Source: a virus (taxonomy: Duplodnaviria > Heunggongvirae > Uroviricota > Caudoviricetes). Taken from it: DNA of 64,000 nucleotides. Position 1 is the first letter of the stretch; every line of letters starts with the position of its first letter. The stretch lies in the IMG/VR virus record IMGVR_UViG_3300026549_002453. One strand, given 5' to 3'. The notes beneath the pieces are model-generated. The model did not search any database. It was not told where the DNA came from and saw only the letters and a program-made list of their open reading frames with translations. This document shows, piece by piece, positions 41,388-59,259 of the stretch. The position numbers and the translations under genes are program-made.

Positions 41388-44300
41388 ATGAAGAAACTAC
41401 TAAGTTTACTATTATGTTTAACAATAGTATTTTCTTCTATGCCAATAGGCGTAATTGCAGAGGATACTCAAAGCGAGGAATCCTCTGCTTTTTCTCTTTC
41501 TGAACATCAAGAGGAATCTATGGAAGAAGAGACTGAAGAATCTGTAGAAGAAAACCAGGAAGAGAGTATCGAGGAAGAAGAACCTCAAGAGGAGGTAATT
41601 GAAGACACTATTCAGGAAGAGGCAGAAGAAAAACTTCCAGAAGAAAATATTCAAGTTAATCAAAATAGCGAAAATGATAAAATTGAAGAGGAAAATGAAC
41701 AAATTGAACTTGTTCAATTAGTAGAAAGTCAAGTAATAGACAATATCAAGATTACTGTAAATGGAGCTTTTGCTGAAGAAGGAACTCTTTCTATTCAAAA
41801 AGTAGAAAGTCAAGAACTTTCTGAAAATAATATAGCAGAAAGCCATAGTTTTGATATTAAAGTACTAAATAGCGACAATCAAGAAATTCAGCCTATAGAT
41901 AAAATTCATGTAAGTTTTGAATTCGAGTCTATTAGTGAGAATGTTGACATAGAAGTATATCACGAAGAAGAACAGTTAGAAGCAGAAACAAAAGAAAATG
42001 TTGTTACTGTGGAAAGTGATGGTTTTTCTATTTATACAGTGGAATTTACTTACAACGATAAAGAATATGTATTGGAAGGCGATACTTATGTAAAACTTTC
42101 TGATATTCTTGATTTTGTAGGTCTTGCAGGAGAAGTAGAATCTTGGGAAATTTCTAATAATGAGTTATTTACAGTCTTAAAAGGAGATGAATATGGAATT
42201 TCTTATGATATAGAGTATATTGATGAAATAGAATATGCTACTCCTATAGATAATCCTGATGGAAATATTCTTTATATGGCCGCTCTTCAAATGTTTGATA
42301 CGGAAGAATGGCTTGATATAACTATAGACGGAATTACATATCATATTATCGTAACAGATGATGCTTATGTTAATGGTCAGTCGCAAAATAAAATAACAGA
42401 TAACAGAGTAGTGCAAGGCGGTAATGAAACTAACTTTACTGCTACTATGCCTTTAGCAACTATCTTTATTGACGAAGATATAGTTAATATGGATGCGTAT
42501 AAGTTACTTCCGCCAACTATAAAAACACAAGAACAGTACGATGTGTATGTTGCAGAACACGGAGAAAATCCTTCATGGAATGTCGGGGATATCGATTATG
42601 ACAACCCCGAAAATACAGGAAAAATGGTGGCAAGACTTGTTTACGATACAACACAAACAGGTGCAAGAACTGGTATGAAAGTTAATACTTCGCCTGATGC
42701 TGGAGATGCATATGGTCAACTTTACTTTGATTTTGCAGATGGTGATTGGGATAAAGGAACTACTGCAAATAACCATGTAATAAATACTTGGAATGGTCCT
42801 GTTGTTGAATATAGGTTCATAAATGCTGCTGAAAGATTTAATACAGAAACTCAACAGTATGAAAGAATGGATGTCATTATTACATATTCTAATGTTAATA
42901 TTAGTATGCAATATAATTTTAACATGGATAATTATAGTAAGTTAACAAAATATGATATCTTAGATGCAAATAAGATTCAACCAAAATTATTTGCAAGCTC
43001 TGATTTAGGCGGAAACGCTAATGATAGAACAGGTCTTAAATTAGATGTCAATATTCAAGTAGTAGATAAGAATGATAATCGTATTCCTGGTTCATACTAT
43101 TTTCCATTGGTTGACGCGGATATTGGTAGAAGTGGAGCTTTTGGAAATCTTTATAAAGGAACAAATACTGAAAATAACTATTATTCAGAACAGTTCGTTC
43201 TTTTAGATAATTATGGTCAACCTACATCTGCTGGTGAATGGGAACAAAAAATTTGGATTCCTGGTGGAGACTATGATAAAACTAAAGCGGCTTCACAAAC
43301 AAGTAATATGCCGTACTTATCTAATATAGATAGTATTAATGGTAACTTGAGAATTAAACCTGGTGCAAGTTATAGTAGTATACCAGCTAATGGATATGAA
43401 CATCCAGTGACAGGAAACACTGGTAGAGACGAAGATTTTTACACAGGTTTTGCTACACTTGCTAATAACACTGACGGCGGAGTTAAGTTCCGTTATTGGG
43501 GAAATTCTGCATATAGAGCTACCCCAAGCGGTTCCGGTACGGTAACATCTTATGTCCTTGCAGGAACACAAAGAATTAACCATAAATTAGATGCTTCTTC
43601 TGATGAAGGAGGCACAATTTATACTACAACCACAGGTAACTCCGACGGTTCACTTTCGGGTGGCGAGCTTATGGGTAATAATTTAGTTAATTCTCCTCAC
43701 CAAATTTCTACTGCTACGGGTCAGCATACTACATACACAATGACACCAAAAGGTGGTTATAGAATTAAGAGTGTATATGTAAAGAGCGGAGATATTGATG
43801 TTCTCGAACAAGTAGAAGGTGGTAACGGAGCAACTTATAATGTTCCTATCAGCGATTTAACAAGCAAGGGTCATGGTATTTATACCTACACATTTACTGA
43901 TATTCAAGAAGATAGCTCCATCCATGTGGAGTGGGAAAAGACAGAGTTAAGTGTAACTAAAAATATAACTCCAGCAGACCCAAATGAAACCCACAAATTT
44001 AATTTCCAAATTAGACTATGGGATACAAGTACAGAAGACTCTATTTGGAGAGTGAGGGCAAGAAAATATAATGGTACTCTCATTAGGGATTATGGAATAG
44101 AAGACGGAACTCCTTATTATATGACTTATAGTGAGTCCCATAATGAGGAAGGTGAAATCGAGAGGTATACTGAGGTACCAGCTAGTGAAATCACAGATGA
44201 GACTAATCCTTCTGAGAATGGTTGGTATGAATCTGTGAGATATTTAGCACAAGCTGCAACACAAAATTTATATATGACAAGATATTTCTTAACAGAGGAT

Positions 44301-47300
44301 ACTGAACCTTATGTAGAAATAGATGATATTACAGGACTTGTTAATTCAAGAAAAACATACTATACAAGAGAAGTCGTAGAGGGAAATATTGAAAGATATT
44401 ATCAACATATTCTTGGTTACAATGAAGAAACCAATACGTGGACAAGTTATGATGTTCGTTCTGATGTAGATAATAGTGTTGTAGCCGATTTAGGTTTGAC
44501 CAATATAGACGAAACTCTTTCTGATAATTATCGCTTTGTCGAAGAGGAAGGGAAAGTATATTTAAAATCATCCTTTGATACAGAATCCCAGACTTACACA
44601 AAATATTTGATGTGGGTGTCTGATGACCAAATTACTAGAGATGTTTTAGTCGTCGGAAATGAAGAACTTTATCCAGAAGGAACCCCGTTTGAAGCAATGG
44701 GAGTATATAATGATTATATATATCTTTGGAAAGATGATGAAAGAGAGTGGTTGCCGTATAATAAGATTATAAGGTCTGAACATTATATGTATATATATCT
44801 GCAACTATGTTTTCCAAGCGCTTCTCATAATAAGTATAAATACGAAAGAGACACTAATAATCCAGTTCATTATGATTTTGTAAGTAACCCAGATGGATTT
44901 GCATTACAAGACGGATATACAAAGCTTACTGGTGAAACAGGTATGTATATTATCAATCTTCCTGCAGGTCAGTCTCCTGATTTAAGTGCTTTTGAAGGAA
45001 CAGATTGGGATTTACTTGTAAGTAGAGTAGGTGCAATTCAAGATGACTTTGATATGGATGCTGAATTTATAGCGAAAGGAGCTACTCCTGCTGCTGGTGC
45101 TAATACTTATACATTTAGTCTTGCTCCTGGTGAAACCATTGACTTTGAAGGTTGCGTCCCTATGGGTTGGAACTACGAAATTATAGAGACGGGTCTCGAA
45201 GGAACAATATGGCAAGAAGTAAGTCACACGACTAATGCTAATATATCAGATTTTGATGGGGAAGAAGCAGTAGAATTTGTCAATCAAAAAAGACTTTATG
45301 ATTTAGATATTACAAAAGAAACTGTAAATGATGCTCCAGGAACATTTGAGTTCAAGGTTAAAGTCTGGCATGAAAGTGCTGAAGAGTTTAAACCTACAAC
45401 TCTAGATGAATCGGGTGCAGGTGGAAACTGGTATGAGAACGACCTCCCTGTTAACCTTATAGAGGATGTTTTTTCTTGGGGGTCTTCTGAAACCATATCA
45501 GGTGAATTTAATAAACCTGTAAATTTAACTGTGCGTCCACATCCTTACGGTATAGAAAAGTTTATACCTGAGCCATGTGCAGTAAAATTATTTAAGGTGG
45601 CAGAAATTAATGATAATGGCACTATAGCTACAATTTCTCCATTTAATCCACCAAACGGGGATAGCACATTTGCAAATATCATTTCTGCTCTTGAGCCTAC
45701 TCAAATAAAGTATATGAGCAGTACTAATGACGCGGTATTTTTAGATGTAGAACCTGGTTTTTATCTTGTTGAATTTAATGAAAATTGGGTTTCTTCAGCT
45801 TGGATTTTACCTCAACAGGATTGGGATTCAGGTGAAATTGTAACGGACTCAATTCTTGATTGTGGAGCGGTGTACCAAATTATACAGCCAATCATAACTG
45901 AAATACCAATGGATTTATCTGAACAATTTGGTGAACCGGATAGTGATGGATATTATCATTTTACTCTATCAGAAGGAAGTGGTATAAAGATAGAAGATAT
46001 TCTTTATGGATACCATTATGAGGTTATAGAAGTACCTCAAGAAGGATGGACTCTTGAAAGTTCTGAAAACACTACAGGTATGATGAGTAAAGACACTACT
46101 GCTAAGTTTACTAACAAGAAAGATATTTCTTTAACGGTTAAAAAAGAAACTGATGCAGATACTGATGAAGAATTTGAGTTTGAAATAGTATTTCCAAGTA
46201 ATAATAGTACATATATATATGCATGGTCATATATAGAACCGATGCAATATGCACTATTACAGGAGGATGCACTGTCTTACTCATATCAGTCTGCTATTAT
46301 GGGTATAAATTTATATATTTGGAATAAATCAGGGTGGCCACCAGATAATTGGGCATATGAAAAGGTCAAAATTCCAGGGATTACTGCAACAGCATACCAA
46401 TATGGTACTGGCGACGAAATAGAAATTATAGATGCAGATTCTTTTTGGCTAAATGATTGGACACAAATAGAACTTTATGATGACAGTAATAATTTACTTA
46501 GAACTCATAATAGAGATGATTTACAGTTTAACTCACTTGATAGTGGAGAACAATTTATCTGTACGGAGTCTAATGGTGCATCTATAAATAGTGTTAATTT
46601 TATTAAAAATAATGAATCAGGTACACTTGATTTAACTGAACAAGATGATGTATATGTAGGAACATTTAAACTTAAAAAAGATGAAGAAATTAAGTTTACA
46701 GATATCCCATATAGCATTGAGTATGAAATATATGAAATAGACCAATTCGGAAATAGGGTTGCTATAGGAGACATTTTTAATACAAAATGGGAACTTAAAT
46801 CCAAAACTAATGATTCGGGTACTTTAACAGAAAACACAACTTCAGTATTTACCAATAAAATGAAAAAAGGTTCTATCAATGTAAAGAAAGAAACCAAAGG
46901 TGATGAAGCTGGTGAATTTAAGTTTAAAGTAAAAGTTTGGAAAGATGTGGTTGGATACGATTATAATAATTTAACACTTGTAACAGAAATGTATGAAGAA
47001 CCAAGTGATGATTTTTATAATTGGGGCGTTGGTTCGTATCGTGAATGTATTGATGAAGAGGCTGGTGAACTCATAAATCATGATATTTATTGGAACGGAA
47101 CTTGTGTCTCAGGGCTCGAATTGGCAACCTGCTCTTCTTCAGGAGCATGGGATTATATGGGGTATGAATATAATACTCACCCATTTACACAAGAATATTT
47201 ACACGGAGATTTTGAATTAATCCCGTTTTTAAAAACTTTTGTGTATTATATTGACGAAAACAACATTGAGCACAATACAGAAACGTACAACCACAAAGAT

Positions 47301-48476
47301 ACTGGCGAAAAAATTACAATCGACGGGATAGAATACCCATTAATCGTTAGTGGGTATGGACATGGAGCGGAGCACAATTATCAGTTGTTTATTCCGAAAT
47401 TAATAACAGAAAATATATCTTTGGATTTATCTGAACAGCTTGGAGAAATTGGTGACGATAGATATTATGAGTTCACTCTTAAAAATGGAGAAAACCTAAA
47501 AATAGAAGATATACCATTTGGACATAAATACGAAGTATACGAAGAAACTCCTGATGGTTGGGAGCTTGTATCTATTGACGAATTGACTCCAAGAGATAAA
47601 GCTGAGGGAACTATCGAGTCAGAAACTCCTTATGAACACACCTTCCTTAATGCCAAAAAGAAGACCCTCACATTTGGTAAAGAAGTAACTGGTAATATGG
47701 GAGATAAGACAAAAGAGTTTGAGTTTGAGGTGAAGGTTCATGGTTGGAAACTTCTCTTTGCAGATGAGGTAGGGCAGTATCTCGCAGCAAATAGTTATTT
47801 TGGTGGCACAGCGGGAATCTTATTTAAATATCCAGAACTTAATCAGCCGCCATTTGAAGCATATTTTGATAAGTTTGAGAGTGGAAACCTTAGAGATTTG
47901 AAGGAATATGTTGGAACACACACTTATTGTCGTTTTGATACTGGACTTGAGTATGATTCGCCAGGAGGCTATGAAGGTAATAGTTTGAATAATGGGGATG
48001 CTTATTGGCAAGAAATATCTGGACGCGGAGTAGGGAATATAGGAGAGTCACATTACTCTATAGATTATCCTCAACCTATTGAAGGGATTGAAAATACTAA
48101 ACAGGGTGAGGTATATTCCCCAGATTGGATAGATTTAGAAGAATATGGTGGTAAATATATAGGTAATGGCGTTTTCAAGTTTAATCTCAAACATGGTGAA
48201 ACAGTTACTATTCCAGACCTCCCTTATGGATACTCCTATGAAATCATAGAAAAGGATTACTCAGAAGAAGGATATGAACAAAAAGTAGATGGTGCAGCTG
48301 GAAGAAGGGTAAGTGGCACCTTAACAGAAGATAAAGAGCACAAATTTGAAAATAGACTTCAAGTATCGGTTCCGACAAAAATATCATTATATAATAATTA
48401 TATGTATATAATTATACTATTAATTAGTATAATGGGTTTATCAACTATAATTATTAGAAGAAAATTGAAAAAGTAA
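41388..48476 (+). CDS. giant (2362 aa) surface adhesin with multiple CnaB/SpaA-like repeat domains and a C-terminal membrane anchor
   Basis: Signal peptide; E-rich acidic N-region; recurring modules (e.g. TFGKEVTG...EFEFEVKV and YxYEIIE..EGW); C-terminal hydrophobic helix and RRKLKK tail. Confidence 0.8.
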   Translation: MKKLLSLLLCLTIVFSSMPIGVIAEDTQSEESSAFSLSEHQEESMEEETEESVEENQEESIEEEEPQEEVIEDTIQEEAEEKLPEENIQVNQNSENDKIEEENEQIELVQLVESQVIDNIKITVNGAFAEEGTLSIQKVESQELSENNIAESHSFDIKVLNSDNQEIQPIDKIHVSFEFESISENVDIEVYHEEEQLEAETKENVVTVESDGFSIYTVEFTYNDKEYVLEGDTYVKLSDILDFVGLAGEVESWEISNNELFTVLKGDEYGISYDIEYIDEIEYATPIDNPDGNILYMAALQMFDTEEWLDITIDGITYHIIVTDDAYVNGQSQNKITDNRVVQGGNETNFTATMPLATIFIDEDIVNMDAYKLLPPTIKTQEQYDVYVAEHGENPSWNVGDIDYDNPENTGKMVARLVYDTTQTGARTGMKVNTSPDAGDAYGQLYFDFADGDWDKGTTANNHVINTWNGPVVEYRFINAAERFNTETQQYERMDVIITYSNVNISMQYNFNMDNYSKLTKYDILDANKIQPKLFASSDLGGNANDRTGLKLDVNIQVVDKNDNRIPGSYYFPLVDADIGRSGAFGNLYKGTNTENNYYSEQFVLLDNYGQPTSAGEWEQKIWIPGGDYDKTKAASQTSNMPYLSNIDSINGNLRIKPGASYSSIPANGYEHPVTGNTGRDEDFYTGFATLANNTDGGVKFRYWGNSAYRATPSGSGTVTSYVLAGTQRINHKLDASSDEGGTIYTTTTGNSDGSLSGGELMGNNLVNSPHQISTATGQHTTYTMTPKGGYRIKSVYVKSGDIDVLEQVEGGNGATYNVPISDLTSKGHGIYTYTFTDIQEDSSIHVEWEKTELSVTKNITPADPNETHKFNFQIRLWDTSTEDSIWRVRARKYNGTLIRDYGIEDGTPYYMTYSESHNEEGEIERYTEVPASEITDETNPSENGWYESVRYLAQAATQNLYMTRYFLTEDTEPYVEIDDITGLVNSRKTYYTREVVEGNIERYYQHILGYNEETNTWTSYDVRSDVDNSVVADLGLTNIDETLSDNYRFVEEEGKVYLKSSFDTESQTYTKYLMWVSDDQITRDVLVVGNEELYPEGTPFEAMGVYNDYIYLWKDDEREWLPYNKIIRSEHYMYIYLQLCFPSASHNKYKYERDTNNPVHYDFVSNPDGFALQDGYTKLTGETGMYIINLPAGQSPDLSAFEGTDWDLLVSRVGAIQDDFDMDAEFIAKGATPAAGANTYTFSLAPGETIDFEGCVPMGWNYEIIETGLEGTIWQEVSHTTNANISDFDGEEAVEFVNQKRLYDLDITKETVNDAPGTFEFKVKVWHESAEEFKPTTLDESGAGGNWYENDLPVNLIEDVFSWGSSETISGEFNKPVNLTVRPHPYGIEKFIPEPCAVKLFKVAEINDNGTIATISPFNPPNGDSTFANIISALEPTQIKYMSSTNDAVFLDVEPGFYLVEFNENWVSSAWILPQQDWDSGEIVTDSILDCGAVYQIIQPIITEIPMDLSEQFGEPDSDGYYHFTLSEGSGIKIEDILYGYHYEVIEVPQEGWTLESSENTTGMMSKDTTAKFTNKKDISLTVKKETDADTDEEFEFEIVFPSNNSTYIYAWSYIEPMQYALLQEDALSYSYQSAIMGINLYIWNKSGWPPDNWAYEKVKIPGITATAYQYGTGDEIEIIDADSFWLNDWTQIELYDDSNNLLRTHNRDDLQFNSLDSGEQFICTESNGASINSVNFIKNNESGTLDLTEQDDVYVGTFKLKKDEEIKFTDIPYSIEYEIYEIDQFGNRVAIGDIFNTKWELKSKTNDSGTLTENTTSVFTNKMKKGSINVKKETKGDEAGEFKFKVKVWKDVVGYDYNNLTLVTEMYEEPSDDFYNWGVGSYRECIDEEAGELINHDIYWNGTCVSGLELATCSSSGAWDYMGYEYNTHPFTQEYLHGDFELIPFLKTFVYYIDENNIEHNTETYNHKDTGEKITIDGIEYPLIVSGYGHGAEHNYQLFIPKLITENISLDLSEQLGEIGDDRYYEFTLKNGENLKIEDIPFGHKYEVYEETPDGWELVSIDELTPRDKAEGTIESETPYEHTFLNAKKKTLTFGKEVTGNMGDKTKEFEFEVKVHGWKLLFADEVGQYLAANSYFGGTAGILFKYPELNQPPFEAYFDKFESGNLRDLKEYVGTHTYCRFDTGLEYDSPGGYEGNSLNNGDAYWQEISGRGVGNIGESHYSIDYPQPIEGIENTKQGEVYSPDWIDLEEYGGKYIGNGVFKFNLKHGETVTIPDLPYGYSYEIIEKDYSEEGYEQKVDGAAGRRVSGTLTEDKEHKFENRLQVSVPTKISLYNNYMYIIILLISIMGLSTIIIRRKLKK

Positions 48477-50416: not shown

Positions 50417-51640
50417 TTGTTAGTACAAAGAACTGAACAACACATCATAGATAGACAGTCCAAGTGGTACAAAATGCTTAAGGAATTGTGTTATAAAGCT
50501 AAAAACACTTATAATCAAGGCAACTATATTATCAGGCAAGAATTTATTAAAAATGGTAAGTGGTTAAGGTATAATGACGTAGATAAACTGCTTAAGTATG
50601 ACCCTCAAAATGATAACTATTACTCTTGGTACGCTCATGCAAATCAACAAGTGCTTAGAAGACTTGATAAAAACTGGAAAAGCTTCTTCGCAAGTATAAA
50701 AGATTGGAAGAAAAATCCCTCTAAGTATAACGGCGTGCCAAAATTACCTAAGTATCTTAAAAAAGATGGTCTAACTGAATGGGGCATTACGGCGGGTGAA
50801 CTTAGGTTAGATTATACCGAAGGATTAATATATTTTCCTAAAGTGATGCAAGGTTTTAATATTCAACCACAATTTATCTATGATGAAAGATTTGTTCAAT
50901 TTAATCATTGTAGAATTGTTCCTAAGAATGATAGAATTATTGTCGAATTAATTTATACTATCTCAATCCCTGATTTTGTTAAAGAGCAAGGCTCTATAGG
51001 AAGTATTGACCTTGGTTTAGATAACTTTGTAACCTTTGTTGATAATCTTGGAAATCGTCCAATTATCATCAACGGTAAAGGTCTAAAGTCCTGTAATCAA
51101 TACTATAACAAGTTAATCGCTCAAATAAAATCAGAGCTTGATAAAAACGGTAATTCAGGATATAGTCACTTGCTATATTCAATTACAAACAAGCGAAATG
51201 ATAAAATTAAGCATTTCATGGATAAAGCATCTAAATATATTGTTGAAAATTGTCTTGATTTAGGAATAAAAACTATCGTGATTGGTAAAAATGATAATCA
51301 AAAACAAAATAGCAGAATGAAAAACTTTGTGCAAATTCCATATAACTTGTTTATTCAAAAACTTGCGTATAAGTGTCAAGAAGTAGGAATTGAACTAATT
51401 CTTACTGAAGAAAGTTATACAAGTGGTACAAGTTTTCTTGATGATGAACTACCAACTAAAGAAAATTATAATATTTCAAGAAGAGTAAAACGAGGGTTAT
51501 TCAAAAGCAATGACGGCAAGTTAATAAACGCAGATGTAAACGCTGCATACCAGACAATAAAAAAGGTATTCTCCGATGCTGTAAAGCCAGGAGATATAGG
51601 GTTAGTAATGAACCCAGTTCGGGTAAACTTTAGTTTCTGA
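50417..51640 (+). CDS. tnpB: TnpB-like (IS200/IS605 OrfB family) protein lacking the C-terminal zinc finger
   Basis: RuvC-I GSIDLGLDNF; YTSG segment; RuvC-III NADVNAAYQ. There are no CxxC pairs where the zinc finger should be. The residue expected for the RuvC-II Glu aligns to IVIGKND, so a Gly or Lys may sit there. GGAGG RBS, TTG start. Confidence 0.75.
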   Translation: MLVQRTEQHIIDRQSKWYKMLKELCYKAKNTYNQGNYIIRQEFIKNGKWLRYNDVDKLLKYDPQNDNYYSWYAHANQQVLRRLDKNWKSFFASIKDWKKNPSKYNGVPKLPKYLKKDGLTEWGITAGELRLDYTEGLIYFPKVMQGFNIQPQFIYDERFVQFNHCRIVPKNDRIIVELIYTISIPDFVKEQGSIGSIDLGLDNFVTFVDNLGNRPIIINGKGLKSCNQYYNKLIAQIKSELDKNGNSGYSHLLYSITNKRNDKIKHFMDKASKYIVENCLDLGIKTIVIGKNDNQKQNSRMKNFVQIPYNLFIQKLAYKCQEVGIELILTEESYTSGTSFLDDELPTKENYNISRRVKRGLFKSNDGKLINADVNAAYQTIKKVFSDAVKPGDIGLVMNPVRVNFSF

Positions 51641-51790
51641 GGTTGATAGAACAAAAAAGACTAAAAACTATAAACAAGGGTGTATTTTTGTATATGCTTT
51701 TATATAGTTGTTAACAGTTTTTATATTATATGTTGTAAAGTGTTGAAATTTTAATATTATAAAAAATTTATGGATGTATGTAAAAAATTA

Positions 51791-51819
51791 TTTACAGCAT
51801 CCATTTTTTTATATATAAT
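51791..51819 (+). promoter_or_regulatory. sigma-A promoter TTTACA-17-TATAAT with upstream A-tract, driving the MoxR-type ATPase gene
   Basis: Perfect consensus hexamers with a 17-nt spacer; near-duplicate of the promoter at 52981. Confidence 0.6.
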
Positions 51820-51871
51820 AATATTGTAATCAAATTGAAAATTATTTTAATCAAGTTAAGGAGAAATCAAA

Positions 51872-52831
51872 ATGAAAATTAACAAAAAGTACAACATTAA
51901 AAAAGAAAACAGAACTAATGACATTATTACTAATCTAATGACAGGGTACCGCCTCGAACGATACAGACCTGGGGACACTAGATACTCTGAACTTTACAGA
52001 ATCTTGAAGATTATGAAGAGACGTTCTATAACTGTTTCTTTGAAAAATAAACTTCTTGAAAGAGCTCTTGAAAGAATTTTTACTGACCCAGAAGACATTC
52101 AGAAGAGACTCATTCAGGTTGAACCTGAACCTGAGGTTGTTTATACTCAAACTTCTGTACCGGAATCTTCTTCCCCAGAGGTTGAGACTAATCCCGAGGA
52201 ACTAAAAAAGCGTACAGTTGAAAAACTTATGGACTTCTTTAGTGAATTTAACTTTTCACCCTCATTTAGATTTACCAATACTCTTGCTTTTGTAACAGAT
52301 GCTAATGAGTATGTAGCAAACTATTTTGCAATTCAAGACCATCAGTATGCTGGTGAGATTGCAGAAAAAATTAAGTCATTGGAGTTTACAGATATTATAT
52401 CCAAGATTAAGAACTTCAATAAACCTAGTAATGAAATTAATTCCCGTATGAAAATATATTATGGGGAACCCGGAACAGGTAAGACCACTCAGGCTATTAC
52501 AGAAGCCGACAGGTGCGTGGTGTGTAGTTCCGATATGCTTCCCACGGATCTCATGCAGAATTTTGCATTTAGTGAAGGTAAGGCAGAGTTCCAGAAGAGT
52601 GACCTTTGGAAGGCTATGGAGAATGGAGAAGTAATAGTTCTTGATGAAATTAATATGCTTCCATTTGAAAGTCTCCGCTTCCTTCAGGGTATTACAGATG
52701 GTAAAAACGAACTTGACTACAAGGGTTTCCATATTGAGATTAAGAAAGGTTTCCAGATTATTGGAACTATGAACCTCAATGTGGGGGGGAGCAGTAATGA
52801 GTGTTCCTTCACCTCTTGCAGACAGATGTAG
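51872..52831 (+). CDS. MoxR/AAA_5-type AAA+ ATPase, truncated at a poly-G tract
   Basis: Walker A YYGEPGTGKTT, Walker B VIVLDEINM, sensor-1 region IIGTMNLN. The ORF ends 13 codons after a G7 run; the -1 frame continues with PSPLADRCSEIVEF, which resembles the sensor-2 region. Confidence 0.75.
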   Translation: MKINKKYNIKKENRTNDIITNLMTGYRLERYRPGDTRYSELYRILKIMKRRSITVSLKNKLLERALERIFTDPEDIQKRLIQVEPEPEVVYTQTSVPESSSPEVETNPEELKKRTVEKLMDFFSEFNFSPSFRFTNTLAFVTDANEYVANYFAIQDHQYAGEIAEKIKSLEFTDIISKIKNFNKPSNEINSRMKIYYGEPGTGKTTQAITEADRCVVCSSDMLPTDLMQNFAFSEGKAEFQKSDLWKAMENGEVIVLDEINMLPFESLRFLQGITDGKNELDYKGFHIEIKKGFQIIGTMNLNVGGSSNECSFTSCRQM

Positions 52832-52918
52832 TGAAATCGTAGAATTTAAATTGACAGCTGATAATCTTATGGCCGCACTAGCGTAGCCTTGATTATAAAT
52901 GATTTCTCCTTTTAGAAG

Positions 52919-52948
52919 AGTGCCACTTGAAATACAGTGGCATTTTTC
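52919..52948 (+). terminator. Rho-independent terminator
   Basis: TGCCACT-tgaaatac-AGTGGCA followed by TTTTT. Confidence 0.65.
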
Positions 52949-52980
52949 ATATAAAAAATTGCAGTTCTATGAAAAAATTA

Positions 52981-53009
52981 TTTACAAAAGGTTCCCTCCG
53001 TGATATAAT
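52981..53009 (+). promoter_or_regulatory. sigma-A promoter TTTACA-17-TATAAT driving the vWA/metallopeptidase gene
   Basis: Perfect hexamers, 17-nt spacer and upstream A-tract; duplicate of the 51791 promoter, including the downstream leader TAAGGAGAAATCAAA. Confidence 0.6.
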
Positions 53010-53044
53010 ATATATGTAATTAATAAGAATAAAGGAGAAATCAA

Positions 53045-54619
53045 ATGTTAAACTACAATATTGTAAATGAAATTTTTAAAACTCTTCCTGTAGGTTATTA
53101 TCTTGGTAGAAAGATTGAGTGTGAGCTGTCTGAAACAGAATCAGGAAGTTACTACAATCCCGCCAAGGATGTCATAGTAGTAAGTTACCCTATGGTCAAA
53201 AAAGCTCTTAGTTCTGTTGAATATACTAGAGAAGGTCTTGAAGAACTTGTTAGAACTATTCTTTATCATGAAATTTCTCATGTTATTCTTACTCCTAAAA
53301 ATTGGAGAATGAGTAGAATCCATAATATAGTAGAAGACGAGAGAATTGAAACCATCTTTAGAACCTACTATATGAACACAAACTTTAGAAAAACAGTTAA
53401 ATTAATAAATAACTTTGAAGGTGTGTCCGTTATTAGCTCAACCCCCATTAGTATGGATAGTGCGTTTTATCATCTCGTAAGATATAGAATTGGAGAAGAA
53501 AAGTGGTTGGAAAGACTTTCTTCCCTTATTTACAAGTATAGAACTCTTAATGCAAATGATAACTATCGTGATTACCAATGGGATATTGATGATTTTTACA
53601 GAGATTTCTGTAGAGAGTGGAGAACCAAAGAAACTGATGAAGCTAGGTCTGATGAAGGGGACAAAGAATCTGGTTCTTCCACTGAACCCTCTCCTGACGT
53701 AACGGAGATGGATGAAAGCTCAGAAACGGCAGAAGAATCTGAAGAACCCTCTGAATACATTTCTAAAACATCCTCCGAGACAGCAGAAGAACTTGATGAC
53801 GCTGATGATGTAGAACAGGATAATAGTGATAACCCTGGTTGTGGTGATGAGAGCGACTTTGAAGATACAATAGAGGATGCTACTAATATCATTAAAAAAG
53901 CAATTAAATCCACCATTGACAAATATAATGATGAAACTCTTACAGCTAGACTCATTCAAATAGTTGACAGAAAACTTAAGCAAAATAAAAAGACAGGTTC
54001 CGCAATAAATAGTTACAGTGGTCAACTTAATAAAAGAGCAATAGCCACTAGAGATGATTACCGTTGGTGGACAACACAGAATAGAGAAGGCAATATCAGA
54101 AGATACTCCAATGTTCACTTTAATCTTTTTATTGACAACAGTGGAAGCTTCTCTCATAATGATACTCTTATGAATACTTTTATTAAGAGTCTTGATAAGA
54201 TTTCTAAAATGAACAAGCAGTTTACCTTTGATGTCATTACTATCAATCACGAAGTAGTAGAATGGGAAGACCACAATAGAGAGTTTGATTCTTGTGGAGG
54301 TAACGAACTTACTGATGATATTGCCAAAGTAATTAAGAGACATACAAAGGTCAATTCAAATAATTACAATATAGTACTCTTTGATGGAGACGCTCATAGT
54401 GATGATTTTAGAAACTACACACCCGAGCAACACATGGCTAAGGGTACAGCTATGGACCCATTCAGGCATTTTGATGGGCCTAACACAATCATTATTTCAG
54501 ACCCCTATAACAAAAAGTATATTACGGCATCAGTAAAAAAGGCAAGAACGATATACACCTATGACTATTGTAATACTTTTGCTGATAATATCTGTAACCT
54601 TCTTGAAAAGGTAATATAA
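53045..54619 (+). CDS. HExxH metallopeptidase-like + acidic linker + von Willebrand factor A (MIDAS) domain protein (partner of the MoxR ATPase)
   Basis: HEISH motif at residue ~75; D/E/S-rich linker; vWA MIDAS motif DNSGSFS. Confidence 0.7.
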   Translation: MLNYNIVNEIFKTLPVGYYLGRKIECELSETESGSYYNPAKDVIVVSYPMVKKALSSVEYTREGLEELVRTILYHEISHVILTPKNWRMSRIHNIVEDERIETIFRTYYMNTNFRKTVKLINNFEGVSVISSTPISMDSAFYHLVRYRIGEEKWLERLSSLIYKYRTLNANDNYRDYQWDIDDFYRDFCREWRTKETDEARSDEGDKESGSSTEPSPDVTEMDESSETAEESEEPSEYISKTSSETAEELDDADDVEQDNSDNPGCGDESDFEDTIEDATNIIKKAIKSTIDKYNDETLTARLIQIVDRKLKQNKKTGSAINSYSGQLNKRAIATRDDYRWWTTQNREGNIRRYSNVHFNLFIDNSGSFSHNDTLMNTFIKSLDKISKMNKQFTFDVITINHEVVEWEDHNREFDSCGGNELTDDIAKVIKRHTKVNSNNYNIVLFDGDAHSDDFRNYTPEQHMAKGTAMDPFRHFDGPNTIIISDPYNKKYITASVKKARTIYTYDYCNTFADNICNLLEKVI

Positions 54620-54629
54620 GGAGTAAAAT

Positions 54630-55238
54630 ATGATATATAAAAAAGATGATAATAACTTTATTCTCAGTTGTAGTTGTGGATGTGGCGAAGCTCTTTCTTT
54701 TGTTATCCCAGATTTTTACGAAGGTTATGGTGATTATTGCTTCATTAATCCTGTTTGTTACGGTACAAATAAAGATAAAACAAGCGTTTGGTATAACATC
54801 AAGGAAACTTTTACTAATATCGTTAAACTTATAACAGGTAAAAATGTATATAGAGTAGGTATCTGTCTTACACCTGGGGATATTGAAACATTGGTCAAAT
54901 GGTTTGAAAAGCAACTTGTCAAAGCTAAGAAAAACAATCTAGTACCTAAAGAAGATAGTTTTATAAGTATATTTAATAGTGATATAATTGAGTATAGAGA
55001 CGGTGAAGAAATTTATATAGGAGTGGATGGTGACTATTCGGACATTTTTGAACTATACTTTTATTCTACAAGAGTACATAATTATAAACTAATGCAAACT
55101 ATTAGGCAGATATTTAGAGAGTTTAGAAGAAATAAATATATGCTTCCTGAAATAGTATTTAATCGTATTAGTTTTATTCATTTTTGTGAATATATGATAG
55201 ATACTATTAGACCATACATAGAAAAGGAGAAATGTTAA
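54630..55238 (+). CDS. hypothetical protein with N-terminal Cys cluster
   Basis: CSCGCGE motif; 202 aa. Confidence 0.45.
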   Translation: MIYKKDDNNFILSCSCGCGEALSFVIPDFYEGYGDYCFINPVCYGTNKDKTSVWYNIKETFTNIVKLITGKNVYRVGICLTPGDIETLVKWFEKQLVKAKKNNLVPKEDSFISIFNSDIIEYRDGEEIYIGVDGDYSDIFELYFYSTRVHNYKLMQTIRQIFREFRRNKYMLPEIVFNRISFIHFCEYMIDTIRPYIEKEKC

Positions 55239-57155: not shown

Positions 57156-58439
57156 ATGTTTGTATATGTTTTAGATAGTAATGGACAACCACTTATGCCA
57201 ACATCTCGTTTTGGCAAGGTTCGTAGATTACTTAATTTAAAACAAGCTAAAGTAGTACGGAGTTGTCCATTCACTATACAGTTGTTGTATGAACCTAAAA
57301 CAACTGTAGTACAAGAAATTGTCTTAGGAGTAGATACAGGTTCAAAACGTATTGGCACAGCTTGTGTTGCTAATGACAAAGTTCTATATCAATCACAGAT
57401 TGAATTGAGAACTGATATCAAATCTAAAATGGACAGTCGTAGACAAGCTCGTAGGTTTAGACGAAATCGTAAAACTAGATACAGAAAAGCAAGATTCCTA
57501 AACAGAGCTAATTCTACAAAGAAAGACAGATTACCACCAAGTGTAAGACATAAGGTACAAGCTCACATTGATGAGGTAGAATTTTGTAAGAAAATACTAC
57601 CAATTTCAAAAATTGTACTTGAGGTAAGTCAATTTGATACCCACTTAATGAAAAATCCTGCATTAATAAGCGAAAAATTAAAACATTGGGCTTATCAAAA
57701 GGGTTTCAATTATGAATTTAGTTCAAGAAGAGAAGCAGTGTTACACAGAGATAACTATACTTGTCAAATATGTGGTAAAAAACATACAAAATTAGAAGTA
57801 CATCATATCATTTATAGAAGTCAAGGTGGTACGGATGATGAGGATAATCTCATAACTCTATGTAAAGATTGTCATGATGCACTACACGATGGACAAATAA
57901 TATTGACTAAAAAACCTCGTAGGATGAATCTTAAACATGCAACTCACATGAGCATTATTAGAAGTCAATTACTTAAAGTCTATCCTGAAGCTACAGAAAC
58001 ATTTGGATTTGTAACTAAAGAGAATAGAAATCATCTTGATTTGCCAAAGGACCACTATATAGATGCTTGTGTAATAGCATCAGGTGGAGAAGGGTTTAAA
58101 CTTAATAATGAGATATTTTACAAAAGAAGAGTAGCTTATGCAGATAGAAAACTATGTAGAGGTATTCGAGGAGAAGAAAGAATACCAACGGGTAAAATAC
58201 ATGGTTTTAAGAGATATGACAAAGTTAGATATTTTAACAAAGAGTATTTTATCAAGGGCAGAATGAGTAATGGATATGTAGTATTGATGGACATATTTAA
58301 TAATAAGGTAGATTTTAGTTACATGCCAAAAGGCATGAAAACGCCTAAATTGGCAAATTGTAAAAGATTAAATTCAAGAAAAAGTGTAATAGTGGATAGG
58401 CAAGAAAGGTATGTAATTTTCTTGCCTAAGATTGTATAA
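57156..58439 (+). CDS. iscB: IscB, OMEGA-system RNA-guided nuclease (PLMP, split RuvC, HNH)
   Basis: PLMP domain with the literal PLMP motif; RuvC-I VLGVDTGSKRIG; Arg-rich bridge helix RRQARRFRRNRKTRYRKARF; HNH CQICGKK...HHIIYRSQGG...DNLITLCKDCHDALH; RuvC-III HYIDACVIASGG. Confidence 0.85.
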   Translation: MFVYVLDSNGQPLMPTSRFGKVRRLLNLKQAKVVRSCPFTIQLLYEPKTTVVQEIVLGVDTGSKRIGTACVANDKVLYQSQIELRTDIKSKMDSRRQARRFRRNRKTRYRKARFLNRANSTKKDRLPPSVRHKVQAHIDEVEFCKKILPISKIVLEVSQFDTHLMKNPALISEKLKHWAYQKGFNYEFSSRREAVLHRDNYTCQICGKKHTKLEVHHIIYRSQGGTDDEDNLITLCKDCHDALHDGQIILTKKPRRMNLKHATHMSIIRSQLLKVYPEATETFGFVTKENRNHLDLPKDHYIDACVIASGGEGFKLNNEIFYKRRVAYADRKLCRGIRGEERIPTGKIHGFKRYDKVRYFNKEYFIKGRMSNGYVVLMDIFNNKVDFSYMPKGMKTPKLANCKRLNSRKSVIVDRQERYVIFLPKIV

Positions 58440-59218: not shown

Positions 59219-59259
59219 TGTAAATAATTATTTACAGTTTAGAGAATATAATATATAAT
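59219..59259 (+). promoter_or_regulatory. perfect 18-bp palindrome TGTAAATAATTATTTACA overlapping a TTTACA-17-TATAAT promoter
   Basis: Palindrome 59219-59236; -35 TTTACA 59231-59236; -10 TATAAT 59254-59259; upstream of the 59304/recombinase module. Confidence 0.55.

Follow-up and report, generated by a model that had tools for sequence, protein, structure and literature searches.

MoxR ATPases carry their signature motifs in a defined order, namely Walker A, the helix-2 insert, Walker B, sensor I, the arginine finger and sensor II, the last of these within an all-alpha subdomain (PMC9976466 Fig. 1). Jumbo phages of group 2.2 have been described as pairing a MoxR AAA+ ATPase with a vWA cochaperone that bears a fused N-terminal metallopeptidase domain, and a role in virion assembly has been proposed for the pair (PMC7824862). 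A separate set of precedents concerns short homopolymeric G/C tracts, as in the poly-G tracts of Campylobacter phages (Sorensen et al. 2021, as cited in PMC11868660) and the 7C tract of M. tuberculosis glpK (bioRxiv 10.1101/717272; PMC10334774). The locus examined here involves elements of both: it is a gene pair of the kind already described in jumbo phages, and its ATPase gene is interrupted at a run of seven Gs. The phenomenon and the gene pair are thus both of known kinds, and the most economical account of the interruption, which we regard as probable, is a recent and real +1 slippage insertion (G6 to G7) that was captured as the population consensus.

The window, by which is meant the whole 64-kb stretch of DNA that was analysed, belongs to a 253,880-bp contig with phage genes, which include those for an M23 peptidase-bearing virion protein, a UvsX-like recombinase and HNH endonucleases. 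A 319-codon ORF on the plus strand (51872..52831), matched by Pfam AAA_5, contains a seven-G homopolymer at 52783..52789 (+), read in the sequence as GTGGGGGGGAGC. A sequence-only reading had correctly recognized the run within this ORF but had placed it 3 nt too far to the right (52786-52792), in a genome that it took to be about 30% GC, the measured GC content of the window being 33.1%. As that reading had also observed, the ORF stops 13 codons past the two GGG codons of the run, and these last 13 codons, which read SSNECSFTSCRQM up to the stop, are out of frame. With six Gs, the frame ends exactly as had been stated, in NLNVGGAVMSVPSPLADRCSEIVEFKLTADNLMAALA followed by a TAG stop at 52884..52886, generating a product of 337 aa in which 31 residues take the place of 13; the net gain is 18 residues, and not the approximately 21 first estimated. 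Seven Gs (319 aa) and eight Gs (308 aa) both yield truncated proteins, and a one-base change in tract length therefore switches the ATPase product, the sequence across the run being ...NLNVGGAVMSVPSPLADR in the full-length product and ...NLNVGGSSNECSFTSCR in the truncated one. The in-frame codons of the G6 version, as deduced from homologs, would be GTG GGG GGA, specifying Val-Gly-Gly, while an interrupted version of the G7 run would be of the GGAGGTGG type.

This run is the only G/C run of at least six nucleotides in the 64-kb window. As a bare sequence feature it is nevertheless within chance for 64 kb, given that at least one G7 or C7 occurs in 65 of 100 dinucleotide-preserving shuffles of the window (mean 1.45). 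G6 matches are depleted, with two (overlapping) observed versus 6.3 expected from the shuffles, and the codons at the site are uncommon in the window: GGG is the rarest Gly codon (12%, GGA being common at 36%), GTG accounts for 13% of Val codons and AGC for 9% of Ser codons, and none of the other 43 Gly-Gly pairs employs GGG-GGR. Runs of A of at least six nucleotides number 111, versus 19 for T, a strand bias that fits the location of nearly all genes on the plus strand. Two further possibilities were considered and rejected. A 35-codon ORF in the shifted frame (52779..52886, +; MWGGAVMSV...AALA), whose ATG lies two codons before the G run, spans the displaced C-terminus, but its ATG at 52779 is preceded by no Shine-Dalgarno sequence, and as an in-trans source of the tail it would have to supply a core beta-strand as a separate peptide. 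Reassignment of stop codons was likewise discarded, since genes fill the window densely when it is read with the standard code, and each of the two stops concerned is at once backed by a further one (TAG TGA; TAG CCT TGA).

The evidence that the frame is broken comes from comparison with the ATPase family. The displaced C-terminal coding segment (52790..52886, +), which amounts to 31 codons and a TAG stop read in the +1 frame, encodes AVMSVPSPLADRCSEIVEFKLTADNLMAALA and holds the arginine-finger motif residues P314, L315, D317 and R318, the core strand beta5 and the terminal helix; the four motif residues are invariant in 36 of 36 aligned sequences. When scored with a family HMM from which the window sequence had been left out, the G7 product reaches 450.9 bits over positions 1-302 of the 332 in the model, whereas 503.0 bits (positions 1-331) are obtained for the G6 product, a gain upon repair of 52 bits. 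In the same manner, the Pfam AAA_5 match, which has an E value of 1.2e-13 for the unrepaired ORF, covers profile positions 5-129 of 139 as the gene stands and 5-139 after repair. A search of 5.8 billion protein clusters identified 938 relatives; among the matches listed, lengths are 313-377 aa and the coverage of the repaired query includes its C-terminal end, with 64-67% identity for the closest. Homologs of 313-345 aa, which number in the hundreds, are colinear with the G6 frame up to its final residue. The frameshift relative to the family is thus well beyond chance. The earlier claim that the G run truncates the ATPase, and that another frame restores a conserved C-terminus, is upheld by these results, and the comparison with homologs proposed for locating full-length versions showed the repaired frame to be matched to its last residue.

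The G7 ORF leaves intact Walker A (GEPGTGKTT), Walker B (IVLDEIN) and sensor 1 (TMNL), while the arginine finger that should follow sensor 1 (PLxDR, the counterpart of MoxR LDRF) is absent from it and is found in the +1 frame only. Structural context was provided by an AF2 model (pLDDT 93.1) of P0005, which is 64% identical and is the nearest full-length homolog to share the local sequence. Past the sensor-1 strand (KIIGTMN), the model displays a loop, a short helix at 311-314 (PLVD), R316, a strand at 317-323 that is the fifth of the core, and lastly a helix at 327-334. Since it follows the sensor-1 Asn (TMNL) and precedes the last core strand, as expected from the MoxR motif order, the restored motif PLADRC (PLxDR) is placed by this model in the arginine-finger region and not in sensor 2. 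The sensor-2 label that had been given to this PLPEAxLDRF-like region from the sequence alone is therefore wrong, and the whole family in fact lacks a sensor-2 lid: the C-terminal all-alpha lid and sensor II are absent, a single short helix follows beta5, and the proteins end approximately 20 residues past the arginine-finger Arg. Because a core strand and the arginine finger are both missing from it, the G7 product is expected to be inactive, being unable to fold or to hydrolyse ATP in a ring.

The gene encodes a MoxR-like AAA+ ATPase, and the MoxR label given to it by the sequence-only reading is a fair one, in view of the Pfam AAA_5 match, the nearest folds and the adjoining VWA partner. 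The top PDB folds for the P0005 model are NorQ, CbbQ2 and the MoxR protein CHU_0153 (Foldseek E ~1e-9, prob 1.00), the alignment to NorQ/CbbQ extending over approximately 155 columns that correspond to the alpha/beta subdomain only; by sequence, the nearest proteins are the AAA_5 modules of midasin. The N-terminus of the family, as seen in the P0005 model, comprises approximately 190 confidently modelled residues that form a small beta sheet and a helical bundle and are joined on by a disordered linker. It might be speculated, on the basis of the model, that these N-terminal helices act in place of the lid. Members of the family (P0002-P0120) reside on contigs of up to 532 kb. A megablast of positions 51600..54700 against 50,697 phage records gave no match, and the INPHARED cultured phages contain no close homolog, the best being a partial match at 29-31% identity.

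The partner gene (53045..54619, +; 524 aa) is intact and has its own promoter (52981..53009). Its product displays an N-terminal HExxH...EDERIE metallopeptidase-like domain, an acidic disordered linker (residues 205-268) and a C-terminal VWA domain. The HExxH and EDERIE motifs are invariant among homologs, as is the MIDAS motif DxSGS in 45 homologs. The assignment of the C-terminal domain derives from structure prediction alone, in which it matches VWA, integrin I and MDN1 MIDAS domains (prob 1.00, TM ~0.5), sequence searches of Pfam, NCBIfam and PDB having returned no significant match; a marginal match to CobT (E = 0.62) was lost on re-alignment. The partner family (homologs P0122-P0241) numbers 482 members or more, and neither Pfam, NCBIfam nor PHROG provides a model for it, which makes it a candidate for a new family definition. 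The pairing of ATPase and partner is kept in most relatives for which downstream sequence is available.

The signals that flank the ATPase gene are in place. Upstream of it lies a promoter-like site, TTTACA-N17-TATAAT (51791..51819, +), that has 11 of 12 matches and is part of a repeated motif, AAAAAATTATTTACA. The motif, which includes the TTTACA -35 element, occurs at 51782..51796, 52972..52986 and 59222..59236, in each case with TATAAT 17 nt later; at up to two mismatches, six matches are observed versus 2.3 expected, and it probably represents a phage promoter class. A Shine-Dalgarno sequence, AAGGAG (51858..51863, +), is located 8 nt before the ATPase ATG, and the ATPase and VWA partner genes are introduced by an identical ribosome-binding string, AAGGAGAAATCAAA-ATG. 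Just past the stop of the repaired frame, a terminator hairpin (52915..52948, +) with a 13-bp stem (-18.5 kcal/mol, z = -3.7) is followed by a U run. With a promoter-like site for each gene and this strong hairpin and U run after the repaired stop, no polarity of the frameshift on the partner gene is to be expected.

The surroundings of the pair also harbor mobile elements. Directly upstream of the ATPase gene is a 407-aa TnpB (50417..51640, +; OrfB_IS605 plus a Cas12f1-like TNB domain), and a Logan contig of the same phage begins at window position 51598, within the tnpB 3' end, suggesting a repeated or polymorphic IS; in one relative (L046), the slot between an Rce1-like gene and the ATPase is filled not by tnpB but by two minus-strand genes. 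A HEARO RNA (Rfam RF02033; 56806..57053, +), which scores 83.9 bits and is thus barely over the gathering score of 83, is immediately followed by a 427-aa HNH-endonuclease ORF (57156..58439, +), and the two form an IscB-like (HEARO) element located about 4 kb from TnpB. Elsewhere in the window, a giant 2362-aa ORF (41388..48476, +) has no PHROG match at E <= 1e-5.

The G7 allele is present in three public records, namely ENA ERZ27252065 k141_147859 (253,880 bp), Logan SRR7971122_47868 and JGI 3300039431 Ga0395993_163832, which match the window at 100% identity over 952 to 6,960 bp and may derive from overlapping read sets. All three carry G7, with no heterogeneity in tract length. The exact G6 product is absent from a collection of 15 billion proteins, and scans of IMG/VR, JGI metagenome contigs and GTDB genomes for the exact flanks, with 4-10 bases permitted in between, found no further copy. 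The 524-aa partner protein, looked up as a route to more samples of the phage, is not on record, and a literature search on the run, sample and assembly accessions returned nothing.

Relatives of the gene were read at the same site in 39 IMG/VR loci and in four loci of the closest homologs, where the G run measures 1-5 (for example GTA GGG GGA; GTG GGT GGG GCA; GGT GGT; AAT GGT). A scan that adds six metagenome loci shows that G/C runs anywhere in the gene reach no more than six in all 49 related genes, and coding is in a single frame in all 49 loci and in approximately 120 homologous proteins among the matches listed. Identity to the closest homologs is 58-74% after the shift versus 58-68% before it, an equality that would be expected if the lesion were recent, bypassed or not real. 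A one-base change was also simulated at every A/T run of at least six and every G/C run of at least five nucleotides. On the coding strand, the G7 run is the top site at which such an edit lengthens an ORF, and none of the other 130 coding-strand runs, including A8 and A9, breaks a gene, which makes the window unlike data prone to homopolymer errors.

These observations bear on whether the seventh G exists at all. A sequencing or assembly indel, in which the phage is truly G6 and the extra G is a consensus error, would account for the perfectly preserved downstream frame, and homopolymers are the classic site of such errors. Short-read consensus errors are, though, rare at runs of 7 nt, and an artefact of this type would have to have arisen in a window whose other coding-strand runs, A8 and A9 included, present no platform-wide error signature across 64 kb. 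The same G7 also emerged from three pipelines (a k141-named, MEGAHIT-style ENA contig, Logan and JGI), which weighs against an error to the extent that the three records do not share reads, as they could. A consensus error is thus unlikely, and a single-error artefact is less likely than a real allele; the G7 allele accordingly appears to be real in the phage population.

If the allele is real, the tract could be an evolved contingency locus, with poly-G retained as a site of slipped-strand mispairing that turns the ATPase ON (G6) or OFF (G7) in the phage population. The ability of a one-base change in an ORF tract to switch the product, the rare codons employed, the standing of the run as the window's lone G/C run of at least six nucleotides, such runs being otherwise avoided there, the intact downstream frame and the precedents of the Campylobacter phage and glpK tracts are all in line with such a locus. 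Six or seven Gs are, however, at the low end of hypermutable lengths, the three records show no variation, a single G7 per 64 kb is within chance, a second tract is absent from the window, and the tract is conserved in none of the 49 relatives, at the site or elsewhere in the gene, all of which renders this explanation quite unlikely. Programmed recoding, in which G7 is the norm and the full-length protein is made through +1 ribosomal frameshifting, with a slip from GGG to GGG or GGA on G_GGG_GGA, or through transcriptional slippage that drops one G, must be regarded as very improbable. A +1 slip on the run would yield exactly the conserved V-G-G-A product, in a gene that otherwise looks fully functional; rare GGG (12%) next to common GGA (36%) makes a hungry-codon slip mechanically conceivable, and the G-rich run followed by AG resembles a Shine-Dalgarno element. 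These candidate stimulators, the rarity of GGG and AGC and the SD-like run, are suggestive only; against recoding stand a slippery site that is not conserved, relatives that are all single-frame, the lack of significant RNA structure in 52760..52900 (z = -0.73), a 0-frame A site without a stop codon, unlike prfB, the absence from the window of a frameshift-suppressor tRNA (tRNA-Met is its only tRNA gene) and a 319-aa 0-frame product that has no conserved tail. A broader reading, in which the lone poly-G tract is a device that toggles or throttles a MoxR-VWA assembly chaperone through slipped-strand switching or low-level +1 slippage, is quite unlikely as well. A switch, a programmed frameshift and an artefact were the options offered by the sequence-only reading; the tests count against each of them, and the best-fitting explanation, a recent and ordinary slippage mutation, was not on its list.

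According to the slippage account, the G run would have arisen by chance from a rare codon choice, GTG-GGG-GGA, for Val-Gly-Gly, and a +1 slippage insertion would then have shifted the ATPase frame after residue 306. The resulting G7 product would retain Walker A, Walker B and sensor 1 and would have lost the PLxDR arginine finger together with beta5 of the core and the terminal helix, while the VWA partner gene, with its own promoter, would be unaffected by the lesion. Being in a homopolymer, the lesion could be reverted by the same type of slippage, and slips of the polymerase or ribosome may now and then yield a little full-length protein; this reversibility and leakiness are generic properties of homopolymers and no sign of an evolved device. 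The change appears to be recent, given the equal identity before and after the shift and the intact promoter, ribosome-binding site and terminator. Two points count against this account: with the ATPase gene intact in every other relative examined, the prevalence of a null allele in a well-assembled 254-kb phage genome implies that the gene is dispensable or that there is some rescue, and the nearest relative for comparison is 67% identical, a G6 allele of the same phage not being on record.

In terms of annotation, the gene should be described as a frameshifted MoxR-like ATPase that is intact with one G fewer, and not as a short 319-aa ATPase, and the motif that follows the shift should be labelled as the arginine finger. 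Should G7 be fixed, the MoxR half of a conserved MoxR/peptidase-VWA pair could be lost, at least transiently; should a mixture of G6 and G7 exist, the gene would offer an uncommon instance of a phage chaperone switched through a homopolymer. If the tract were a device after all, poly-G contingency would extend from the receptor-binding genes of Campylobacter phages to a non-structural chaperone gene in an uncultured gut/rumen jumbo phage. The pair itself, a large and well-conserved jumbo-phage family without a Pfam model, may outweigh the frameshift in interest.

Comparison with the systems introduced above, and with the recoded gene prfB, indicates where this locus stands. As in prfB, a +1 shift is needed for the conserved protein and a G-rich, SD-like sequence is found at the site; what sets the locus apart from prfB is that the site is not conserved, that the shift codon carries no in-frame stop, that an upstream SD at the proper spacing is missing and that homologs are single-frame. 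The likeness to the Campylobacter phage poly-G tracts and to the glpK 7C tract is that a one-base indel in a short G/C run switches a product off in a manner that is reversible in principle. Those tracts display length heterogeneity, recurrence across isolates and phenotypic consequences, of which the G7 run described here gives no sign, and the run is absent from relatives. With NorQ/NorD and CbbQ/CbbO, the ATPase family shares Walker A and B, the sensor-1 Asn and the Arg finger, as well as a MIDAS-bearing VWA partner; it differs from NorQ and CbbQ in having a ~190-aa N-terminal domain instead of an all-alpha lid and sensor II, and its partner differs from NorD and CbbO in its peptidase-like N-domain. 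The likeness to the pair from jumbo phages of group 2.2 (Iyer et al. 2021, PMC7824862; published examples ASV44729.1 and ASV44728.2) is one of architecture: although the ATPase here, unlike theirs, is frameshifted, an AAA_5/MoxR-like ATPase adjoins a fusion of an HExxH metallopeptidase-like domain and a vWA domain, and here too the carrier is a jumbo phage (254-kb contig).
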